DNA of 41,987 nt from a virus (taxonomy: Duplodnaviria; Heunggongvirae; Uroviricota; Caudoviricetes). Shown here piece by piece: positions 4,920-40,298 of this stretch (positions within the stretch are counted from its first letter, which is position 1; each line of letters opens with the position of its first letter). Below the pieces are notes generated by a model. That model saw nothing but the letters and a program-made list of their open reading frames with translations. It was not told the DNA's origin and made no database searches. The position numbers were made by a program, and so were the translations under genes. The DNA lies in IMG/VR virus record IMGVR_UViG_647533160_000006, positions 1 through 41,987 of that record. One strand, given 5' to 3'.

Positions 4920-5798
4920 TCAGTAGTTATGTACTGAAGGAGGTAATTCTTTATTCTTAAGTCTCATCCATGCGGAAAGATTCGTTGGTCCTTCTGGCTC
5001 ATTGATATCAACATCTCGTGTGTGATTGATTAAAACGTCCCTCGCCATTCCGATAACATACGAGAACTCATGACCGTAGTCGTAGCATCTGCCGGAATAG
5101 TTCGATTGAATTTGTTTTAATGCCGGATACAGTTCGCGGAATAATGCCTGTGAGCGGTTGGCATAATCCCATAACCATACAAGGCTGTTTGCTTCTTTTG
5201 CAGAAAGCTCGTTGGTTTTCTTCTCTTGTTTGCCGATAAACTCGCCTTCAAGCACTACCCTGTGGATGTACTCTACGGCCAGCGGGATTTGTTCAATTGA
5301 AAGTTCATCAATGCTGTCAATACCAAAACGCTGATGAACCATATTGTATGCATCGTCATAGCGAAGTCCTTTCTTTCCTACCAGCATGTTTACTGCATCG
5401 CGTAGCGGCGTTCTTTCCTCAACAGTGGTTTTCTTGCCTTTCACATACTCGCCATGTTTGCGAATTGAAGGTAGAACTTCTGCTGTTACCCACTTGCGGA
5501 ATTTGTGCGGGACCGAACCTTTATTGACAGCATCGCGGCAGCGCAGAACCAATGTATACATACCTGATTCGCTAACAATGCTTAGATTCTGCTCACCACC
5601 AAGGGTGTAACTTAAAGTTACTCCCTTTTCATCGTCATCAAGTGCAGTAAGCGCCTTGCGTGAGTTAGTCAGGGTTAAAGCATCACAAACATCTTTTGCT
5701 ACAAACCACGGATCACCGCATTTGTTGATGACGCGGATTTCACTGTCGCCGAATTTGAAGATGGTGAAATCGTTTTGTGCCTTTGCTATACTTTTCAT
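4920..5798 (-). CDS. ant: Phage antirepressor Ant (BRO-N / KilA-type)
   Basis: Motif [29 protein letters not shown] typical of Bro-N antirepressors; lies downstream of arc as in P22 immI; start chosen at internal Met (MKSIAKAQ) leaving a 68-nt arc-ant spacer; ORF is open up to 5864. Confidence 0.75.
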
Positions 5799-5866
5799 GT
5801 CAATATTTCCTAATCCGATTTGTTGATACCGAAGCCCTGACTGTTCCCGCAGTTGGGGCTTCAACT

Positions 5867-6028
5867 TTACGCGCCAATGCGCCCTTCCTTCTTAAAGCTT
5901 TCCATTACTCTCTGATAAATCTCAGAGTTAACAGACCGACCATTCTCTTCCGCCACCTTGCGTACCAAATCCAATACTTCTTTAGGCCACCGCAAATTGA
6001 ACTGCGGCATCTTGCTCATTCCTTTCAT
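5867..6028 (-). CDS. arc: Arc repressor (ribbon-helix-helix)
   Basis: Translation [53 protein letters not shown] (53 aa) is essentially the P22 Arc sequence as I recall it; the track ORF is extended upstream. Confidence 0.9.
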
Positions 6029-6044
6029 ATTCACCTCACAATAT

Positions 6045-6061
6045 AGGTCCACCGTGGACCT
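6045..6061. promoter_or_regulatory. Mnt operator (Omnt)
   Basis: Perfect 17-bp palindrome AGGTCCACCGTGGACCT in the arc-mnt divergent region. Confidence 0.8.
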
Positions 6062-6070
6062 ATTGAGAAT

Positions 6071-6091
6071 ATAGTAGAGTGCTTCTATCAT
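6071..6091. promoter_or_regulatory. Arc operator (Oarc)
   Basis: 21-bp ATAGTAGAGTGCTTCTATCAT, matching the Arc operator as I recall it, adjacent to Omnt. Confidence 0.75.
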
Positions 6092-6118
6092 GTCAATACA
6101 CTAACTTGGAGTGATGGC

Positions 6119-6370
6119 ATGGCTAGAGATGATCCGCACTTTAACTTCCGTATGCCTATGGAAGTAAGGGAGAAATTAAAATTCAGGGCGGAGGCGAATG
6201 GGAGATCAATGAACTCCGAGTTGTTACAAATCGTCCAAGATGCTCTATCAAAACCATCGCCTGTGACTGGATATCGCGACGATGCAGAACGACTCGCTGA
6301 TGAGCAGTCAGAGCTTGTTAAGAAGATGGTGTTTGATACGCTGAAGGATTTGTACAAAAAACCCACCTGA
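6119..6370 (+). CDS. mnt: Mnt repressor
   Basis: 83-aa product MARDDPHFNFRMPMEVREKLKFRAEANGRSMNSELLQIVQDAL... matches recalled P22 Mnt; divergent from arc. Confidence 0.9.
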   Translation: MARDDPHFNFRMPMEVREKLKFRAEANGRSMNSELLQIVQDALSKPSPVTGYRDDAERLADEQSELVKKMVFDTLKDLYKKPT

Positions 6371-27634: not shown

Positions 27635-29515
27635 TTAATACTCCGTCACGTTTTCCTGTCGCCACGCCTCGTCATATTCCGATTTCGGCATATTGGCGAT
27701 GTAGCTATATGGCGATCCTGATTCAAGTTGCAGGAACTGGTGCGATTGCTCGTCAAGGAACAACGGGACACCACCTTCCCAACCTTCGCCGTTACGTTGT
27801 TTTTCAAGCATCAAAACAGATGCCGGAGACGCCAGTAGCTGTTCGTCCTTCTCTGACATCTTTTCACCACTCTGAACTCTCTGTAACGCTCTCTCGCGAG
27901 CCTTGTTACGCCAGATGATGAAAAGGTTGTCTGTCAGGTCTGTTATCGCTCCAGAGCCTTTTACGTCCATTTTCCCGGTTGGTTTTTCTTCGCTGTCTCC
28001 TTTTCGCGAGTGAGTAACGAGAATGACGTGGGAGTTTGTTTTGTTTTTGAAGTCGCAAATCGAGTCAACAAACGCCTTCTGCCCGTTATAGTCATCGTCG
28101 CCTATGCCACATTTCATCAGGCTGTCGATGATGAATAACTGGATCCCGTATCGGCGGCGAGCGTAGTCGAATATTTCGATCAGCCTGTCGGCTTTCGCCG
28201 TTCCGGTCAGGCCAAACACCCAAAGTCTTTCGTCATAAAATTTAAATGCAGAGTCAATTTCCAGCACTGGCGGAATCTTGCAGCACGTCGCCTGACGGGT
28301 AAGGCGCTTAAGGAGAATACCAGGCTTCAGCTCAAGTGACGCGATGCACGTCTTCACACCCTGACGCATTGCCTCAAGTGCCATATGCCCGACAACCTCC
28401 GTTTTTCCGTGACCGTTCACACCATTGACCAGCGTCAACTCTGCCTCACGGAACTGGAATTTATCTGCCAGAGATTCCCACGGTGGATTAAACAGATACT
28501 GCTGCTTGCCGTAGAAAGCATTGATAGTGTCCTGGTAAAACTCTCGCGCACTGTAGAGTTCTTCAGGATCGAAGTAGGATGCCGTGCCGATGTACTGCCA
28601 GATTTCATCCTCGGTAACACCGTTCATCAGGCATTCGTTGATGTCTTTGTACGGCAGAGTAACAAGACGGCAACGATGTTCACCGAGTCGGCTTGCGATT
28701 TCCCTTGCGGCTTCACGACCAACATCATCAACGTCCATCGAGATGAATATTTCCTCAAACCTGTCGAGATTGTGATACTCAAACTCAATCCACTGCTGCT
28801 TAGCGCCTTTCCCGCCACCAAACGGCACGGATAACGCCGAGATGCCGTATTGCGCATAGCTCATACAATCAATTTCGCCTTCGCAAAGTACAACCGCCCT
28901 CACGCCAGCGTCCAGAGCCTGCCATCCGAACAGACAAGGTTCGCAATCACCTTCTGCCATAATGACTTTCTTCCCGTCCGGGCGCTCAGTGCTGATTCGC
29001 TTGACCTGCAACAACTCACCATCGCGTTTGTACGGAAGCACCAGTGCATCAAGTTCTCGTTCTCCATTCCACACCTTGCCGCTGACAACCTCGTAGCGCT
29101 TTACGACTTCTGGCGATATGCCACGCGATTGCAAGTACTCAAGATGGGATTCTGTTCTGGTAACGTAGCGGGCGATTTTCTTGCGATCAGGTCTGGAGAA
29201 TTTCTTCTCACGTTTGGCATCGAAATGGTGATCGTCATCCTTGATACCGAGAAATGCTTTCGCTTCCTGCATAGCCTGATGCAGGTTAATTCCACGACAT
29301 GCCATCCACAAATCAAGCATGTCACCGCCGTCTCCCTCAGCGAAATCAGCCCATTTTTTCTTGCCGCTAAGGTTGACCTTAAGGCTGTTTCCCTTGTCGC
29401 CGTTGACGTTACCGGCAACCCACTCATGCCCCTCTTTCTTGCCGTTTGGCAACAGGTGCGGAGCCACCCTGTCAACCTGCGCCCAAAGCAGGTCGCTGAG
29501 TTCACTTGGCGTCAT
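27635..29515 (-). CDS. Replicative primase-helicase (Toprim + DnaB/P-loop helicase domains)
   Basis: 626 aa; Toprim-like segment (VVLCEGEIDCMSYAQYGISALSVPFGGG) and Walker A (VNGVNGHGKT); occupies the lambda P position. Confidence 0.75.
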   Translation of the reverse strand: MTPSELSDLLWAQVDRVAPHLLPNGKKEGHEWVAGNVNGDKGNSLKVNLSGKKKWADFAEGDGGDMLDLWMACRGINLHQAMQEAKAFLGIKDDDHHFDAKREKKFSRPDRKKIARYVTRTESHLEYLQSRGISPEVVKRYEVVSGKVWNGERELDALVLPYKRDGELLQVKRISTERPDGKKVIMAEGDCEPCLFGWQALDAGVRAVVLCEGEIDCMSYAQYGISALSVPFGGGKGAKQQWIEFEYHNLDRFEEIFISMDVDDVGREAAREIASRLGEHRCRLVTLPYKDINECLMNGVTEDEIWQYIGTASYFDPEELYSAREFYQDTINAFYGKQQYLFNPPWESLADKFQFREAELTLVNGVNGHGKTEVVGHMALEAMRQGVKTCIASLELKPGILLKRLTRQATCCKIPPVLEIDSAFKFYDERLWVFGLTGTAKADRLIEIFDYARRRYGIQLFIIDSLMKCGIGDDDYNGQKAFVDSICDFKNKTNSHVILVTHSRKGDSEEKPTGKMDVKGSGAITDLTDNLFIIWRNKARERALQRVQSGEKMSEKDEQLLASPASVLMLEKQRNGEGWEGGVPLFLDEQSHQFLQLESGSPYSYIANMPKSEYDEAWRQENVTEY

Positions 29516-31344: not shown

Positions 31345-32061
31345 ATGGAAAATAAAAAATCACTGACGACAGAACAGCTCGAAGACGCTAAGCGGCTTAA
31401 GGCTTTGTATGAGTCAAAAAAGAAAGAATTGGGAATAACCCAATACTCAATCGCTGATGAACTGGGTATCACCCAAGGAGCGGTAGGGCATTATCTTAAT
31501 GGCAGAAACGCGCTAAACGTTGAGGTTGCATCTGGTTTTGCACGATTGTTGCAAGTCTCAATTGCTGATTTTAGCCAGTCAATTGCTGCCAAGGTTGCAG
31601 AACAGGCAGAAAGCCTTAAGAGCGATGCCAACGTAAGGTATGCAGGGGAATACAGAGCAGGAAAGAGGTATCCGGTGTTAAGCAGTATCCAGGCTGGCTC
31701 GTGGTGTGAAGCATGCGAACCATACACCATTAAAGACATAGATGTTTGGCTTGAGTCTGACGCGCATATTCAAGGTAATGCGTTTTGGCTTAAAGTGGAA
31801 GGTGATTCAATGACGGCACCGGTTGGGTTAAGCATTCCAGAGGGAACATTCGTTCTTTTCGATACCGGAAGGGAGGCGATCAACGGCAGCTTGGTCATAG
31901 CAAAACTTTCTGACTCTAACGAAGCAACATTCAAGAAGCTGATAATCGACGGAGGAAATAAATACCTCAAGGGACTTAACCCTGCATGGCCTCTCGTGCC
32001 AATCAATGGAAACTGCAAGATTATAGGCGTTGCAATTGAGACAAAACTAAGGCTGGTTTGA
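31345..32061 (+). CDS. cI: CI-like prophage repressor (HTH + LexA-type S24 peptidase domain)
   Basis: 238 aa; N-terminus LTTEQLEDAKRLKALYESKKKELGITQYSIADELG parallels lambda CI; C-terminal ...VEGDSMTAP...FKKLI... autocleavage-domain pattern. Confidence 0.85.
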   Translation: MENKKSLTTEQLEDAKRLKALYESKKKELGITQYSIADELGITQGAVGHYLNGRNALNVEVASGFARLLQVSIADFSQSIAAKVAEQAESLKSDANVRYAGEYRAGKRYPVLSSIQAGSWCEACEPYTIKDIDVWLESDAHIQGNAFWLKVEGDSMTAPVGLSIPEGTFVLFDTGREAINGSLVIAKLSDSNEATFKKLIIDGGNKYLKGLNPAWPLVPINGNCKIIGVAIETKLRLV

Positions 32062-32708: not shown

Positions 32709-33019
32709 ACCAAAGAGTAGTTGGCTTTGGGGTGACGTGAAGTGCAGCTGCACGACGGCAACCGGAAGATAAGCACCCGGCGCGTCACCGCCAAAGTCAA
32801 TTCCATAGGCGAAATGCAGCCGCCAAACACAGCCAATGCTGCACATGCAACAGGAGGATTTATGTGAATGCATAACTTCAAAACCGAGGTTAATTAAATC
32901 TCTCGATCCGAGCATTGACCTATTAGGTGGCGAGATGCTCTTTCTGCCCCTCAGTTCGAGGGGCCAGAAACCACTTTGCAATCACTATCAATTCCAAAGT
33001 TGTTTCATCGGAGGTCAAC

Positions 33020-33325
33020 ATGACAGTAGTCATTACATATCTGGCTGACGATAACGCCAGAAATCGCCGCAGAGCACGCAGACAGGCTCAACGTGAACAG
33101 GCAATGCAAGAGCAGCTACTGGCGCGAAAAATTGCGCTAAAGCTCTCTGGTTGCGTCAGGGCAGATAAAGCAGCATCACTCGGAAGCCTTCGCTGCAAGA
33201 AGGTAGTAGAAGTCGAGCGTAAACAGAACCGTATTTACTACCGCAAGCCACGCAGTGAAATAGGTGTGACTTGTGTTGGTCGCCAGAAGCAACGCGGAAA
33301 ATCAATTCCAGCTTATTGCGATTGA
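33020..33325 (+). CDS. N: N-like antiterminator
   Basis: From ATG 5 nt after GGAGG; N-terminal Arg-rich motif DDNARNRRRARRQAQREQ; ~101 aa; the track ORF is extended upstream. Confidence 0.75.
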   Translation: MTVVITYLADDNARNRRRARRQAQREQAMQEQLLARKIALKLSGCVRADKAASLGSLRCKKVVEVERKQNRIYYRKPRSEIGVTCVGRQKQRGKSIPAYCD

Positions 33326-35233: not shown

Positions 35234-35545
35234 ATGATGATTCTGACTCTGAATGATAAGCGTGAAATATCGCAAATAATCGCAAGTTTTACTGATGAAG
35301 ATTACGAGCGAATCAACAGTGAAGTTGATCGCCTCTGCAAACGTTGCGACCCAATAAGCGAAATGCTTCGCTCATATAAACCAGATGAACACACTAAAGA
35401 CGCTATCGACTGGCTGGAAGATGATGACTGTAACTATCAGGAAAAATCCGCTGAATGGTTCTGGGATGCAATAACCGAAAGAGTTAAGGCTGAATATGCC
35501 TTCGCAATATTCAAACGCAGACACATTTATGGAGAAGCAGCATGA
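35234..35545 (+). CDS. Hypothetical early protein (103 aa)
   Basis: ORF after AGGAGA; directly upstream of and overlapping recT; a 35-aa ORF (35149-35256) coupled to the cIII stop overlaps its start. Confidence 0.5.
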   Translation: MMILTLNDKREISQIIASFTDEDYERINSEVDRLCKRCDPISEMLRSYKPDEHTKDAIDWLEDDDCNYQEKSAEWFWDAITERVKAEYAFAIFKRRHIYGEAA

Positions 35546-36444
35546 GCAATATCGTTGAATTCGTTAAACAGCAGGAGCAGTTATTCTGCGGAGCATTGAC
35601 TGAACAGACGGTGACATGGGCTAAGGAAAGCCAGTTTGCAATTCAGTATTTCCAGAAAAACGATTACCTGGCTAAAACAGCACTGGCAAACCCAACCAGC
35701 GCACAGAACGCCATCATCAATGTTGCGGCGATCGGCATCACCTTAAACCCGGCCAGCAAACTTGCTTATCTAGTTCCGCGCGACGGCATGGTTTGCCTTG
35801 ATATCAGCTATATGGGATTACTTCACCTTGCGCAATCGACAGGTTCAATTAAGTGGGGGCAATGCAAACTGGTGTACTCAAACGACACCTATGAATCAAA
35901 TGGCCTTGATTCAGCACCAACCCACAAATACAACGCATTTGGTGAGCGAGGCTCTATTGTTGGAGGTTATTGCACGGTTAAAACAGCAGATGGTGACTAC
36001 CTGACTGAAGAAATGAGTCTGGCGGAAATTAAAGCTGTGGAAGCAACGAGCAAGGCAAAGAATGGACCGTGGAAAACATTCTGGGAAGAGATGGCGCGTA
36101 AAACAATAGTTAAACGCGCCAGCAAATACTGGCCTAAAGCCCAGCGACTGGATAATGCCATTCACCTGCTTAACGAAGATGAAGGTATGCATCAGGAACC
36201 AGTTATGCCGCACAAATCAGAGGAAGATATCCGCGAAGATGAACGGAAACGCCAGCAGGAAATTATGGAAAAAGCACAACTTCTTTGTGATGAAATGGCT
36301 CAGGCAGAAAACATGGATGATTTGAAGCGATATTTTGCAGAAGCATATCGCCTGACATCTGGAATGAAATTACAGCAGAACGTACAAGCCATTTACATAG
36401 AATGCAAAGCGAAACTGGAGGTTGCCAGTGAGCAAACTGTATGA
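35542..36444 (+). CDS. recT: RecT-family single-strand annealing recombinase
   Basis: 300 aa with conserved-looking blocks ...NVAAIGITLNPASKLAYLVPRDG... and ...GPWKTFWEEMARKTIVKRASKYWP. Confidence 0.75.
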   Translation: MSNIVEFVKQQEQLFCGALTEQTVTWAKESQFAIQYFQKNDYLAKTALANPTSAQNAIINVAAIGITLNPASKLAYLVPRDGMVCLDISYMGLLHLAQSTGSIKWGQCKLVYSNDTYESNGLDSAPTHKYNAFGERGSIVGGYCTVKTADGDYLTEEMSLAEIKAVEATSKAKNGPWKTFWEEMARKTIVKRASKYWPKAQRLDNAIHLLNEDEGMHQEPVMPHKSEEDIREDERKRQQEIMEKAQLLCDEMAQAENMDDLKRYFAEAYRLTSGMKLQQNVQAIYIECKAKLEVASEQTV

Positions 36445-36910
36445 AATTGCCAATGAATACGCAAAATTGATGGATTCAGATTTAGAACCAGAGATGATTG
36501 CTGACACAATAGAAGGCATGGAAGGAGAATTTACCGATAAAATAGAGCAACTTCTTTCCGTCATTAAAAATGAATCTGGTTATGCTGAACGCCTCAAGGA
36601 AGAGGCAAAGTCGCTGAATGAGCGAGCCGCAGTAATTCAAAATAAGATTGACAGCATCAAATCATATATAGCGTCATCGCTTGAAATGGTTGGCAAGAAA
36701 AATATTCGAGCAGGTATTCACCAGGTAACAATCCGCAAACCGTCAGAAACTGTAGAAATCATCGACTCAAGCGCCCTTCCTCCTGAATACGTTGAGTTTG
36801 AAACGACAATTAAAGCCGACAAACTGGCAATCAAACACCAACTAAAAGCAGGAATAAATATCCCCGGCGCTCAACTCAAAGTTGGGAAACCTTCACTTCT
36901 TATCAAATAA
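36428..36910 (+). CDS. Recombinase-associated protein (Siphovirus Gp157-like)
   Basis: ~160 aa from GTG 6 nt after GGAGG; acidic helical N-terminus; immediately follows the annealing protein as Gp157-family genes usually do. Confidence 0.45.
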   Translation: MSKLYEIANEYAKLMDSDLEPEMIADTIEGMEGEFTDKIEQLLSVIKNESGYAERLKEEAKSLNERAAVIQNKIDSIKSYIASSLEMVGKKNIRAGIHQVTIRKPSETVEIIDSSALPPEYVEFETTIKADKLAIKHQLKAGINIPGAQLKVGKPSLLIK

Positions 36911-36921
36911 CGGTATCGACT

Positions 36922-37236
36922 ATGAAAAAGACTCCATGGGAGAAATGGGAAGTCGATTTCTTGCGCGAGGTAGCGGCGACAATGCCAGTTGAAGTTATCG
37001 CTGAAAAACTGGAAAGGACTGAAAAAGCAGTAATGGCGAAAGCAACAAGGATTGGCGCTGACATTGTTAGCCGACTTCGTGGAAGACGATGGACAAGAGC
37101 CGAAGTATCACTTTTCGGTAAGTTCTCCGCAGAAGAAATAGCAATTGCAACCTGCCGCTCAATTTATTCAGTGAGAGCTATGCGATACAAGCTAAAAAAA
37201 CTCGATGAAGAGAGAACAGGCATACAAATAAATTAA
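36922..37236 (+). CDS. Hypothetical basic protein with internal duplication
   Basis: 104 aa; two similar W...AEEIA...R segments; possibly nucleic-acid binding. Confidence 0.5.
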
Positions 37237-37252
37237 CAAAGAGGAATTTACC

Positions 37253-37417
37253 ATGAGAGGGCTTGCATACAATCCCGGCATTCTTCCGGCAGAAATGATT
37301 ATTCGCCAACGCGTAAAGCCAATGCCATCGAGAGAGGAATTGCTTAAGAGAAATTCTTTTCCATCAGTAAATCAAAACAAATATCTGAATGCGATGTGGC
37401 GGAGTGGGAAGAAATGA
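37253..37417 (+). CDS. Small hypothetical protein (54 aa)
   Basis: ATG 6 nt after AGAGGAA; stop overlaps the next start (ATGA). Confidence 0.4.
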
Positions 37418-38073
37418 AACAAATGTCACTAATTGAGATGGATGGATTTCTGAAAGGTAAATGCATACCACGAGATTTAAAGGTTAACGAAACAAACGCT
37501 GAATATCTGGTGCGTAAATTTGCTGAAGCGGAGGCCAAGATTTCGGCTCTGTCCGAAGACCACCAGAAAGCGATTGAGTCAATTAAGCAGGCTGATGCAG
37601 CTGTTAAGTTGGCACACGAGAAGTTTTCGGCGCTGGCTGCGGAGAATGCGGGGCTGAAGTCTGGCGTAACTTACTTCGCATATTCACCTGAATATGGATT
37701 CGATTATTTCAAAGACAAACAGAGTGCAATTGATACCGCTCAGGCAGAGATTGATGCTTACCGCGAAGATGTAGAGAACGGGTGGAACGAGGATGTCCAG
37801 CGCATTTCCTGGGGTATTGTGGTGCAACAGGCGCAGGGGTTCGACGCGCAGGGGCTGCACACGTCCGATATCCGGCATACATATCAGACGTGCGATTACA
37901 GACTGGTAGATGCGGTTGAAACCCCAGCCACCGACTCTTTCCTGTCTGAAGTACGGGCGCAGGGGGTGGAGATGTTCTCAGAAAAATTCGGAGGTGGCAC
38001 TCCGCTTTCCAATATGGTCAAAGAGATAGCGGCCGATTTTGCGGCGCAACTCCGCAAAGGAGGAAACCAGTGA
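37414..38073 (+). CDS. Hypothetical early protein with N-terminal coiled coil
   Basis: ~219 aa from ATG; heptad-rich N-terminus; the track ORF begins at an upstream GTG. Confidence 0.55.
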
Positions 38074-38756
38074 TCAAGATTGACTATCAGGCACTGCGTG
38101 AAAAGGCAGAGAAAGCAACTAAAGGAAGCTACATCGTAGGGCATACATCTGTTAACCAGCACGGTAATTTAACAGGAGTTTTTGTTTGTCAAAAATGGAA
38201 AGGAGAACCCGGTGGCGTGATTGCAGAATGTCATGTTAACTGCCTGGTTGAAACAGATGCTCAGGCTTATGCAAACGCTGAATTTATTGCTGCCTTTAAT
38301 CCAAAGATTGCTCTGGCACTACTGGATGAACGGGAAAGAAACCAGCAATACATCAAATCACGCGACCAGGAGAACGAGGATATTGCACTAACGGTTGGGA
38401 AGCTGAGAGTTGAGCTGGAAGCCGCAGAGAAGCGCAACGCAAAATTACAAAGCGAGAATGCATACATCCGCAACCGGTACAAAGAACTGGACCTATTAAT
38501 CGGGAAAAACATTCTTGTCATGCAGGCTGCGATTATCGAATGGCAGGCAACTGGCGACGCTAAAAGCGGACTGGCATGGATTTATAACACACTGTTTGGC
38601 CAAGGCGAATTGCCGGACAAATCTGAGAAAGATGCTCAGGCCTACTTTAAGCGCAAATATGCACCGATTGACGAAAAGCTTATGGAGCTTCACAAGTGGT
38701 TTTGGGAGCAAAGTGAAGCCGAGCGCGCCGCTGGCATTCGCATCAAAGGAGAGTGA
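38070..38756 (+). CDS. Ead/Ea22-like early protein
   Basis: 228 aa; N-terminal [19 protein letters not shown]...FIAAFNPKIALALLDERE and central coiled coil resemble the Ea22-like family as I recall it. Confidence 0.6.
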   Translation: MIKIDYQALREKAEKATKGSYIVGHTSVNQHGNLTGVFVCQKWKGEPGGVIAECHVNCLVETDAQAYANAEFIAAFNPKIALALLDERERNQQYIKSRDQENEDIALTVGKLRVELEAAEKRNAKLQSENAYIRNRYKELDLLIGKNILVMQAAIIEWQATGDAKSGLAWIYNTLFGQGELPDKSEKDAQAYFKRKYAPIDEKLMELHKWFWEQSEAERAAGIRIKGE

Positions 38757-38757
38757 T

Positions 38758-39435
38758 ATGAGCGCTATAACCAAAGAACGTATCAAATTATTCATTAAAA
38801 ATCCGCTTGATAACGGGCTTACCCGTGGCGAACAAATGGAACTGGCACGGATTGCACTGGCATCGCTGGAACGCGAACAGATTCGCCACGAGCATGCCAA
38901 ATGGTCTGACTCCACATTTGGCTGCGTTGGCCCCATTGGTCCGCTGAAACATCTCTCAAAAGAGGCACTGGAAGCCGCAGCCGAACCAGACGATCTTAGC
39001 GAGTGGGCTGATATGCAGTTTCTGTTGTGGGATGCACAGCGCCGTGCTGGCATCAGCGATGCTGAAATTACCGTTGCTATGGAAGATAAATTGAAGATCA
39101 ACATGGAGCGCCAGTGGCCTGAGCCAAAAGATGGTGAGCCTCGCTTGCACATTAAAGAACCCGGCAACTCTCCGGTAACTCCGGATGGTTGGGTCATGGT
39201 GCCGAAGAGACTAACAGCCGAGAACGGCGCTAAGGGTGCGCTATCCGGTGAATTTTCAGAAACTACGTTTATCAGCTGCCCGGAATGCTTTGGCGATGAT
39301 GATTGCGATACCTGTGACGGTAGCGGGCGGATTGAAATTAAAGTACCAGTCACGTGGACGACCATAAAATCCATCTGGGATAAAGGTATTGCGTATTTTG
39401 CAGCAGAACCGCCTCAGGAGGTTAACCGTGGCTAA
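38758..39435 (+). CDS. Hypothetical early protein with C-terminal Cys cluster
   Basis: 225 aa from ATG overlapping the upstream stop; C-terminal CPECFGDDDCDTCDGSGR zinc-ribbon-like motif; the track ORF starts further upstream in-frame. Confidence 0.55.
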   Translation: MSAITKERIKLFIKNPLDNGLTRGEQMELARIALASLEREQIRHEHAKWSDSTFGCVGPIGPLKHLSKEALEAAAEPDDLSEWADMQFLLWDAQRRAGISDAEITVAMEDKLKINMERQWPEPKDGEPRLHIKEPGNSPVTPDGWVMVPKRLTAENGAKGALSGEFSETTFISCPECFGDDDCDTCDGSGRIEIKVPVTWTTIKSIWDKGIAYFAAEPPQEVNRG

Positions 39436-39712
39436 CCTGCAACTTGCCGTTAAAGGTAAATTTTTCGATGCCATGATTCGCGGAGAGAAAACGGAGGAGT
39501 ATCGCCTGTGTAATGACTACTGGAATAAGAGAATCATGTTCCGGGAATATGACCGCCTGATTATCACAAAGGGATATCCGAAGCGCGACGACTCCAGTCG
39601 CAGAATTGATGTCCCGTATGACGGATATGAAATCAAGACAATCACACATCCGCACTTCGGCGATAAACCGGTAAAGGTGTTCGCGATAAAGGTGAATATC
39701 GGCAATGAATAA
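39428..39712 (+). CDS. Hypothetical early protein (94 aa)
   Basis: GTG 7 nt after AGGAG; VANLQLAVKGKFFDAMIRGEKTEEYRL... Confidence 0.5.
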   Translation: MANLQLAVKGKFFDAMIRGEKTEEYRLCNDYWNKRIMFREYDRLIITKGYPKRDDSSRRIDVPYDGYEIKTITHPHFGDKPVKVFAIKVNIGNE

Positions 39713-39745
39713 CAATCCTCGAACTCGCGGGGATTTCTTTTATCT

Positions 39746-39770
39746 GAACTCGCTACGGCGAGTTTTGTTT
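39746..39770 (+). terminator. Intrinsic terminator
   Basis: AACTCGC-TACG-GCGAGTT followed by TTGTTTT. Confidence 0.65.
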
Positions 39771-39784
39771 TATGGAGATGATAA

Positions 39785-39952
39785 ATGCACTTCCGGGTGA
39801 CAGGTGAATGGAATGGAGAACCATTCAACAGAGTTATCGAAGCGGAGAACATCAACGACTGCTATGACCACTGGATGCTGTGGGCGCAGATAGCGCATGC
39901 AGACGTAACCAATATTCGAATTGAAGAACTGAAAGAACACCATGCCGCCTGA
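39785..39952 (+). CDS. Small hypothetical protein (55 aa)
   Basis: ATG 7 nt after GGAG; MHFRVTGEWNGEPFNRVIEAENINDCYDHWMLWAQIAHADVTNIRIEELKEHHAA; sits between two terminators. Confidence 0.45.
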   Translation: MHFRVTGEWNGEPFNRVIEAENINDCYDHWMLWAQIAHADVTNIRIEELKEHHAA

Positions 39953-39967
39953 TGGCGGTTTTTTATT
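39945..39967 (+). terminator. Intrinsic terminator ending the left early operon
   Basis: CCGCC-TGAT-GGCGG followed by TTTTTTATT. Confidence 0.75.
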
Positions 39968-40009
39968 ACCTGATTTGCAGGTTCGATTCCCTATTCGGAG
40001 ATAGTACTC

Positions 40010-40210
40010 ATGCAACACGAACTACAACCTGATTCATTGGTTGATTTGAAATTCATCATGGCTGATACTGGCTTTGGTAAAACCTTCATCTATGACCGGA
40101 TTAAGTCCGGCGACCTGCCTAAAGCCAAAGTTATCCACGGGCGAGCAAGATGGTTATATCGTGACCATTGTGAATTCAAAAATAAGCTCTTAAGCCGCGC
40201 CAATGGGTAA
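40010..40210 (+). CDS. torI: AlpA/TorI-family excisionase (recombination directionality factor)
   Basis: 66-aa MQHELQPDSLVDLKFIMADTGFGKTFIYDRIKSGDLPKAKVIHGRARWLYRDHCEF...; winged-helix excisionase pattern; matches my recollection of TorI; adjacent to attR. Confidence 0.7.
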   Translation: MQHELQPDSLVDLKFIMADTGFGKTFIYDRIKSGDLPKAKVIHGRARWLYRDHCEFKNKLLSRANG

Positions 40211-40283: not shown

Positions 40284-40298
40284 CTGCAGGGGACACCA
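40284..40298 (+). other. attR core (displaced copy of argW 3' end)
   Basis: CTGCAGGGGACACCA identical to argW positions 1069-1083. Confidence 0.6.

Follow-up and report, generated by a model that had tools for sequence, protein, structure and literature searches.

Mosaic accessory genes at the distal end of the early-left operon of a P22-like prophage at argW

Introduction

In phage lambda and the Shiga-toxin (Stx) phages, the PL operon ends with the exo-xis region, flanked by the recombination genes on one side and xis on the other, and the counterpart of this region in P22-like phages (Lederbergvirus), such as Kapi1, HK620, Sf6 and CUS-3, is the ea region. Among the proteins encoded there, Ea22 is the best studied. 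It has a described three-part domain layout (PMC8614690, PMC10834534), its C-terminal domain in lambda has been solved by nuclear magnetic resonance (PMC10834534), and deletion studies in lambda and phi24B indicate that ea22 favours lysogeny (PMC7093339). For lambda Orf55, a published model gives a three-strand, one-helix fold like those of T7 Gp2, the RNA polymerase epsilon subunit and phi29 p56, and binding to RNA polymerase has been speculated upon (PMC8614690). Here, we describe a region of this type at positions 36428-39952, plus strand, of the IMG/VR record IMGVR_UViG_647533160_000006. The whole stretch analysed, 41,987 nt long and called the window below, contains a complete P22-like (Kapi1-like) prophage of about 39.2 kb. 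A sequence-only reading of the window had already delimited this run of early genes beyond recT and placed it in the part of lambdoid genomes that usually holds host-takeover and anti-defence genes. Its coordinates, strand and region type are borne out: the run makes up the non-essential accessory part of the early-left genes in a lambdoid/P22-like prophage and corresponds to the lambda exo-xis and P22 ea regions.

The likeness to lambda and the Stx phages lies in the genomic position at the end of the PL operon, with recombination genes before it and xis after it, in the presence of an Ea22 family protein, and in an orf55 gene whose DNA, flanking hairpins included, is almost identical to that of lambda. 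However, homologues of orf60a, orf61, orf63, orf73 and ea8.5 are lacking, the recombination module is RecT/Gp157 rather than Exo/Bet/Gam, the excisionase is of the TorI type with the integrase at the other end of the prophage, and there are extra DUF2737, DUF550 and ASCH genes. The P22-like phages share both the phage type and the integration module (argW and a TorI-type xis), and partial matches were obtained to features named EaA, EaD, EaE and hkaH. The nearest phage is Kapi1, which has the same early-left gene order, excisionase and attachment site, with the order RecT, Gp157, 104-aa protein, DUF2737, Ead/Ea22, further genes, orf55 and xis. Kapi1 covers 53% of the 3.9 kb compared, and its middle cassette is a different mosaic from the one in the window, which consists of a 219-aa protein, a 933W-type Ea22, a DUF550 fusion and an ASCH-type protein.

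Overall layout and gene content

We are fairly confident that 36428-39952 belongs to the leftward early (PL-type) operon of a P22-like prophage at argW, of which it forms the promoter-distal, non-essential part in three layers. Upstream on the same plus strand are an S24/helix-turn-helix (HTH) repressor gene (31345-32061), an N-like open reading frame (ORF; 32927-33325) and recT (35542-36444; PF03837, E 2.6e-33), the upstream anchor of the region, and this arrangement puts the region at the promoter-distal end of the operon. The first layer is a recombination-associated conserved core running from RecT through Gp157 and a gp9-related tandem HTH protein to DUF2737. The second is a hypervariable, domain-shuffled cassette of a 219-aa coiled-coil protein, the 933W-type Ea22 and a MazZ-like fusion protein. 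The third is a terminal cassette shared with lambda, comprising the ASCH protein, two tandem terminators, orf55 and a third terminator before the excisionase gene. As a discovery this carries little weight, being a textbook mosaic accessory segment of lambdoid/P22-like phages; nothing about this mosaic end of a P22-like early-left operon is out of the ordinary, and all its parts are known as families. Its practical value is in annotation, as the gene count is corrected, the 55-aa ORF can be named lambda orf55, and the conserved core is split from the hypervariable cassette.

Several points weigh against this picture. Transcription from PL with antitermination would be expected by analogy with lambda and P22, and the N-like ORF matches Pfam N_peptide weakly, at E 0.0023 and below the cut-off. 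A Foldseek search with the model of the tandem HTH protein returned no significant neighbour (best E 0.14), the case for catalytic competence of the DUF550 domain comes from one motif alignment, and the putative ASCH assignment of the 94-aa protein is drawn from a motif and from NCBI naming.

The ORF listing, reading of the sequence and family scans together give eight tightly packed plus-strand genes, the first of which starts 17 nt inside the recT stop. Neighbouring genes overlap by 4-17 nt or are separated by 1-16 nt, the spacing of a translationally coupled operon, and every one of the eight ORFs matches a PHROG family, with E values from 4e-20 to 2e-93. The PHROG matches, the tight spacing of starts and stops, and a ratio of nonsynonymous to synonymous substitution rates (dN/dS) of about 0.20 in orf55 show that these are real genes and not chance ORFs. 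Six genes had been listed in the sequence-only reading, which missed the 54-aa DUF2737 gene and either merged or dropped one of two adjacent coiled-coil genes. The statement that none could be assigned a function also proves too strong: seven of the eight proteins belong to named families (Sipho_Gp157, DUF2737, Ead/Ea22, DUF550, ASCH, lambda Orf55 and the Mu gp9-like PHROG 323), and published data exist for Ea22, DUF550 and Orf55. Most proteins of the region are nevertheless without an experimentally defined function. An NCBIfam scan of nine proteins gave nothing meaningful, and an Rfam scan found no RNA family in 36428-39952. A 292-aa ORF with a high content of Ser, Pro and Arg lies on the minus strand opposite the Ea22 and DUF550 genes (38496-39374) and is most likely a by-product of codon bias in the sense genes.

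The same data bear on whether the region is decaying prophage DNA with ORFs that no longer function. Its gene combination is unique among the genomes searched, and relatives of the region in other genomes carry pseudogenes and insertion sequence (IS) elements, as decay would predict. However, all eight ORFs are intact, of family-typical length and translationally coupled, identity to genes of the plaque-forming phages Kapi1, lambda and 933W is at least 82-99%, and orf55 is under purifying selection, which together make decay scarcely credible.

Conserved and variable genes were separated using a sample of 80 IMG/VR viral contigs with a Gp157 at least 96% identical to the one in the window. The core is conserved in nearly all of these, with recT in 79/80, the 104-aa HTH protein in 77/80 and DUF2737 in 71/80. 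The 219-aa, Ea22 and DUF550-fusion proteins occur at full length in 0/80, and partial copies of them are found in 47/80, 52/80 and 15/80, respectively. This pattern of core and variable genes is, from the sequences compared, the signature of module shuffling. In complete E. coli genomes, some part of the 3.9 kb is present in 4045/5426, and none of the genomes spans at least 80% of it.

The recombination-associated core

The first gene of the region encodes a Sipho_Gp157 family protein of 160 aa (36428-36910, plus strand) that begins with GTG and overlaps the recT stop. The Gp157-like protein named at this place by the sequence-only reading is thus a clear family member, matching PF05565 at E 1.1e-37 (130 bits against a cut-off of 28.6) over residues 3-160 of 160. 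The family is very large, with 7599 cluster representatives in the library. Gp157 genes adjoin a single-strand annealing protein gene, not only here but also in the related loci, where recT is adjacent in 79/80. A survey of Firmicute phages has likewise found sipho_gp157 and Mu Gam in the same slot beside annealing-protein genes (PMC8093625).

This position raises the question of a Gam-like role. The protein matches phrog_253, 'Mu Gam-like end protection', at E 2.4e-54, and the Mu Gam profile PF07352 is weakly matched by 28 of 119 diverse Gp157 relatives (best E 5e-6); the Gp157 of the window itself has no PF07352 match in the Pfam scan. An hhalign alignment with Mu Gam is collinear over 102 columns and weak (probability 12.5%, E 0.0023), and BLASTP between the two gives E 0.6. 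The AlphaFold2 (AF2) model, with a predicted local distance difference test score (pLDDT) of 96, has a long helix at residues 21-88 and a small C-terminal part; it does not show the long helix plus dimeric beta-barrel of a Gam/Ku-like fold. Homology to Gam is not demonstrable, and Gp157 is not placed in the Gam family. In terms of function, several of these comparisons point to a Gam-like protector of DNA ends, and the chance that the protein works like Gam appears to be about even. Gp157 would most likely assist RecT, the annealing protein, as an accessory partner and, like Mu Gam, plausibly bind DNA ends or protect them.

Next comes a basic protein of 104 aa (36922-37236, plus strand; isoelectric point (pI) 9.86) that matches phrog_11492 (E 4.4e-23) and phrog_323 (E 4e-20) and no Pfam family. 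It resembles Mu gp9, which NCBI names 'transcriptional regulator, D5-like', by BLASTP at 5e-5 and by hhalign at 67%. Its AF2 model (pLDDT 82.6) consists of two three-helix bundles, with helices at 8-17, 23-30 and 34-44 and again at 59-66, 70-77 and 81-99, and the top matches in Foldseek, none of them significant, are bipartite HTH DNA binders. Relatives of 153 aa hold a third copy of the unit W-x2-E-x2-L...EIA...RS..SV together with a match to sigma-70 region 4 (PF08281). The protein had been described as basic and internally duplicated. The first part agrees with the pI, and the second holds by motif and fold but not by pairwise self-alignment, which scored 21 against a mean of 21.6 for shuffled sequences and so is not significant. 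Pairwise local alignment was accordingly set aside as a demonstration of the duplication, whose support comes from the motifs and the fold.

The genomic neighbours of this protein form the sole mildly new observation of the analysis. In a distant comparison made up of Mu and two prophage contigs, the gp9-like protein marks the 3' edge of four recombination or end-protection modules that differ in mechanism: RecT with Gp157 in the window, Gam in Mu, a DUF3799 exonuclease, and a lambda-type Gam with YqaJ. In phage Mu, gp9 is directly upstream of gam (locus Mu 5482-6325); in an Enterobacter prophage, a relative follows the DUF3799-exonuclease module; and in a Salmonella prophage, a relative follows lambda-type Gam and the YqaJ exonuclease. 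DUF2737 comes after the gp9-like protein in most cases. The Mu gp9 (E8)-Gam pair is similar to the pair described here in that a small PHROG 323 tandem HTH protein adjoins a protein related to DNA ends, Gam in Mu and Gp157 in the window. The two differ in that the gene order in Mu is reversed, Mu has no RecT, and Gp157 is not demonstrably a Gam homologue. The gp9-like protein is predicted to be a small DNA-binding factor that would travel with recombination modules. A bolder proposal, which we consider rather unlikely, is that it belongs to phage recombination and end-protection modules as a widely conserved accessory component that has gone unrecognised, regulating them or targeting them to DNA ends or to the host repair and nuclease machinery, and that with Gp157 it possibly makes up a two-part RecBCD countermeasure. 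Its placement beside recombination modules is the one lead worth a database-wide synteny count.

The core ends with a DUF2737 protein of 54 aa (37253-37417, plus strand), the gene overlooked before. It has a good ribosome-binding site, AAAGAGGAA, and matches PF10930 at full length (positions 1-52 of 53; E 2.6e-31, 107.7 bits against a cut-off of 25) as well as phrog_1117 (E 4e-38).

The variable cassette and the question of anti-defence

The variable cassette opens with a modular coiled-coil protein of 219 aa (37414-38073, plus strand) whose gene shares an ATGA overlap with that of DUF2737. It has no Pfam match and is assigned to phrog_614 (E 5e-55), and seven further PHROGs each span one segment of it. 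Searches of phages with tblastn gave mostly partial matches, on features named EaE, EaD and hkaH.

A GTGA overlap leads into the gene for the Ea22 protein (228 aa; 38070-38756, plus strand), which is of the Stx-phage type. The N-terminal domain (residues 3-130) matches PF13935, Ead_Ea22, at E 3.4e-35 and 122 bits against a cut-off of 27, in agreement with the Ea22-like coiled-coil protein that had been recognised here from the sequence. The protein has both the shared coiled coil and the three-part layout of the Ead/Ea22 family. It is 82% identical to the Ea22 of 933W (NP_049469) over its whole length, save for a 28-aa deletion in the coiled coil, and the coiled coil is 67% identical to that of lambda Ea22 over 61 aa. 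The protein has a 933W-type C-terminus; a C-terminal domain of the lambda type was looked for, and there was no match to any PDB chain and no similarity to lambda beyond the coiled coil. Relatives of this 933W-type Ea22 bias the decision between lysis and lysogeny toward lysogeny.

The third gene of the cassette (38758-39435, plus strand) encodes the 225-aa protein whose C-terminal Cys cluster had been pointed out in the sequence-only reading and can be written as C-x2-C-x6-C-x2-C. Residues 42-137 form a DUF550 (MazZ/MazG-like) domain, matching PF04447 at E 8.2e-42 (141.8 bits against a cut-off of 23) over profile positions 1-96 of 97. The acidic metal-binding motif ExxE...ExxD is present as E68-A-L-E71 and E81-W-A-D84, which align with EIGE...EVAD of MazZ (7ODY) in one weak PDB match. 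The DUF550 enzyme of phage SH-Ab 15497 has been shown, as cited in PMC12884076, to convert dGTP and dATP to the deoxynucleoside monophosphate and pyrophosphate, and the DUF550 enzymes of Z-genome phages form their own monophyletic group (PMC12884076). The window protein has the same Pfam domain and the same acidic motif as these enzymes in the 7ODY alignment. It differs from them in lacking a PurZ, DatZ and DpoZ context and in being fused to the Cys-cluster module instead of DUF5664. The C-terminal 86 residues are a separate module, in which P..LTAENGAK..L.GEF is followed by the Cys cluster and then by V.W..IK.I. This module can be found behind other N-termini, for instance in Sb31 of Salmonella ST64B and in Klebsiella, Serratia and Pseudomonas phages. 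Three of its Cys are invariant and the fourth is present in 3/4 sequences. The protein, in which a MazZ-like deoxynucleoside triphosphate pyrophosphohydrolase domain is joined to a module that probably binds zinc, would adjust the nucleotide pool.

A variable set of genes between a recombination core and an excisionase gene could also be an anti-defence island, made up of early counter-defence or host-takeover factors. The cassette is hypervariable between conserved anchors (full-length copies in 0/80 contigs, core genes in 71-79/80), its genes belong to an early operon and encode small, domain-shuffled proteins, nucleotide pools or signals are conceivable targets of a nucleotide pyrophosphohydrolase, and Gp157 is a possible Gam-like protector of DNA ends. 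The neighbouring abc genes of P22 are related to RecBCD, and one of them triggers abortive infection (bioRxiv 10.1101/2023.04.06.535777). However, no protein matches any characterised anti-defence protein, a screening paper on phage accessory genes makes no mention of Ea22, ASCH or MazG, and for Ea22, the best studied of these proteins, the known phenotype is developmental (pro-lysogenic) and not one of anti-defence (PMC7093339). We therefore treat an anti-defence role as doubtful. The ORFs do not all match characterised housekeeping phage proteins, and the anti-defence idea is neither proven nor refuted. For toxicity and anti-defence screens, the fast-evolving candidates are the three genes in 37414-39435; the Gp157 and gp9-like pair is more likely part of the recombination function.

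Care must be taken with matches from defence-system libraries, which in any case are to defence and not counter-defence models and look like library artefacts. PADLOC reports no defence system in the region. Its PDLC02890 model, 'DpdH' (127 positions), matches Ea22 residues 117-215 (window 38418-38753) at E 1.4e-34 without the context of dpd genes, and its 'mad1' model matches the TorI-type excisionase (40010-40210) at E 7.6e-14. Because dpd context is missing and the matched domain is an ordinary 933W Ea22 C-terminus, the 'DpdH' match is probably an artefact of a mis-seeded model. Both models were seemingly built from prophage genes and could give false defence-system calls in prophages.

The terminal cassette shared with lambda

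The DUF550-fusion stop is overlapped by the GTG start of a 94-aa protein (39428-39712, plus strand), present as had been stated. It matches phrog_625 at E 6.7e-51, and its cluster of 523 relatives carries the NCBI name 'ASCH domain-containing protein'. Residues G19, K21, E24 and R26 are invariant in 23 sequences, giving GxKxxExR, the signature of the ASCH superfamily. The window protein does not match Pfam ASCH (PF04266) even at E 10, whereas 12 of 23 close relatives match it weakly (best E 0.013), and a PDB profile search with the protein found no significant match. The ASCH-type protein would probably have an RNA-binding or RNA-modifying fold.

The last gene of the run, at 39785-39952 on the plus strand, is lambda orf55, an identification made by tblastn and by the match to phrog_676 (E 3e-39). 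Its 55-aa product is 96.4% identical to lambda 29122-29286 over 55/55 aa, where lambdap35, a hypothetical gene, is annotated between ea8.5 and xis, and it was found by tblastn in 86 phage records. Among 18 distinct copies, dN/dS is about 0.20, with 15, 9 and 1 variable sites at codon positions 3, 1 and 2, respectively. Orf55 is a protein-coding gene under purifying selection.

Three terminator-like hairpins accompany orf55, all on the plus strand, each far more stable than shuffled sequence and followed by a U-rich tract. The first, with its U tract, is at 39714-39743 (hairpin 39714-39735; 8-bp stem, -9.7 kcal/mol, z -3.5) and the second at 39746-39773 (hairpin 39746-39765; 8-bp stem, -11.9 kcal/mol, z -4.0). 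The third lies over the orf55 stop at 39944-39967 (hairpin 39944-39959; 6-bp GC stem, -11.4 kcal/mol, z -3.2) and ends in a U6 tract. The 55-aa ORF is therefore boxed by terminators as had been claimed. The broader claim of terminators internal to the run holds around this ORF and not elsewhere, as the remainder of the run has no other terminator-like sites on the plus strand.

In the DNA alignment, the upstream hairpins, ribosome-binding site, ORF and downstream hairpin are almost base for base those of lambda. Hairpin 1 is that of lambda save for 2 bases, hairpin 2 is common to lambda and E. coli VTB97448v, and hairpin 3 is identical in lambda, Kapi1 and VTB97448v and is annotated as a rho-independent terminator in the record of phage HK140. 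The VTB97448v prophage has a different first hairpin, and Kapi1 keeps orf55 and the downstream hairpin without the upstream hairpins. Similarity to lambda ends a few bases past the U tract, to be followed by xis in lambda and by the TorI-type module here; the terminator-orf55-terminator cassette has been swapped intact between phages with different excision modules. One candidate identity for the hairpins, lambda tL3, was rejected, as the tL3 segment of CRIM vectors (PMC6883643 supplement) differs from them and is absent from the window. In that 300-bp 'tL3 terminator' of CRIM-derived vectors, the hairpin GGCTGGGTATTTCCCGGCC is followed by the start of an ORF, MHKASSVELR, unrelated to the orf55 hairpins (PMC6883643).

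The orf55 ATG follows the U tract of hairpin 2 after only 12 nt, which contain the ribosome-binding site. A promoter scan found no sigma-70-like site near orf55, and such sites were overall fewer than in shuffled sequence. With neither room nor a match for a promoter before orf55, we infer that orf55 and the excisionase gene need antiterminated read-through. They would be expressed only when antiterminated RNA polymerase from PL passes the hairpins, tying them to induction or infection. Alternatively, orf55 could be a moron, transcribed independently between its terminators and active in the resting prophage to the advantage of the lysogen. The terminator-bracketed gene does resemble the layout of a moron, and phages that differ in their excisionase module (lambda xis or the TorI type) have exchanged the cassette as one unit. 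We nevertheless find a moron improbable, as a sigma-70-like promoter is missing near orf55, a promoter placed before the ATG, with its spacing of 12 nt, would have to overlap the terminators, and Kapi1 keeps orf55 without the upstream hairpins.

Attachment site and neighbouring features

The prophage is integrated at argW, a tRNA-Arg(CCT) gene at 1009-1083. The attL core (1069-1083) is the last 15 nt of argW, and an exact copy of this 3' end forms the attR core at 40284-40298 (plus strand), which marks the prophage end and gives the prophage its span of about 39.2 kb. A tyrosine integrase gene (1209-2402) follows argW. The last gene of the operon (40010-40210, plus strand) encodes a TorI/AlpA-type excisionase, for which the RefSeq homologue is torI and which matches phrog_66, 'excisionase', at E 2.7e-8. 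The two genes are at opposite ends of the prophage, unlike the adjacent pair in lambda, and this arrangement matches the IntS/TorI layout of the KplE1/CPS-53 type (PMC2951348). Past the prophage end is a sucrose-type major facilitator superfamily (MFS) permease gene on the minus strand, with a RefSeq homologue named 'oligosaccharide MFS transporter'.

A T-arm segment of argW, TGCAGGTTCGATTCC (1055-1069), has an exact 15-nt copy at 39976-39990, past the orf55 terminator and before the ribosome-binding site of torI. Similarity to lambda ends exactly at this copy, and Kapi1 is arranged alike. The adjoining 15 nt of argW, the attachment core, come 294 nt beyond it, at 40284-40298, and it looks as if the torI gene had been inserted within the 30-nt 3' end of argW. 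The copy at 39976-39990 may be the scar of an old attachment site that mediated an exchange of excision modules.

A sar RNA (Rfam RF00262, 71.6 bits, E 4e-13) is found at 5800-5866 on the plus strand, where it lies opposite the beginning of a 314-aa ORF on the minus strand (4920-5864). Together, the two look like a P22-type immI region with the antirepressor gene ant and sar.

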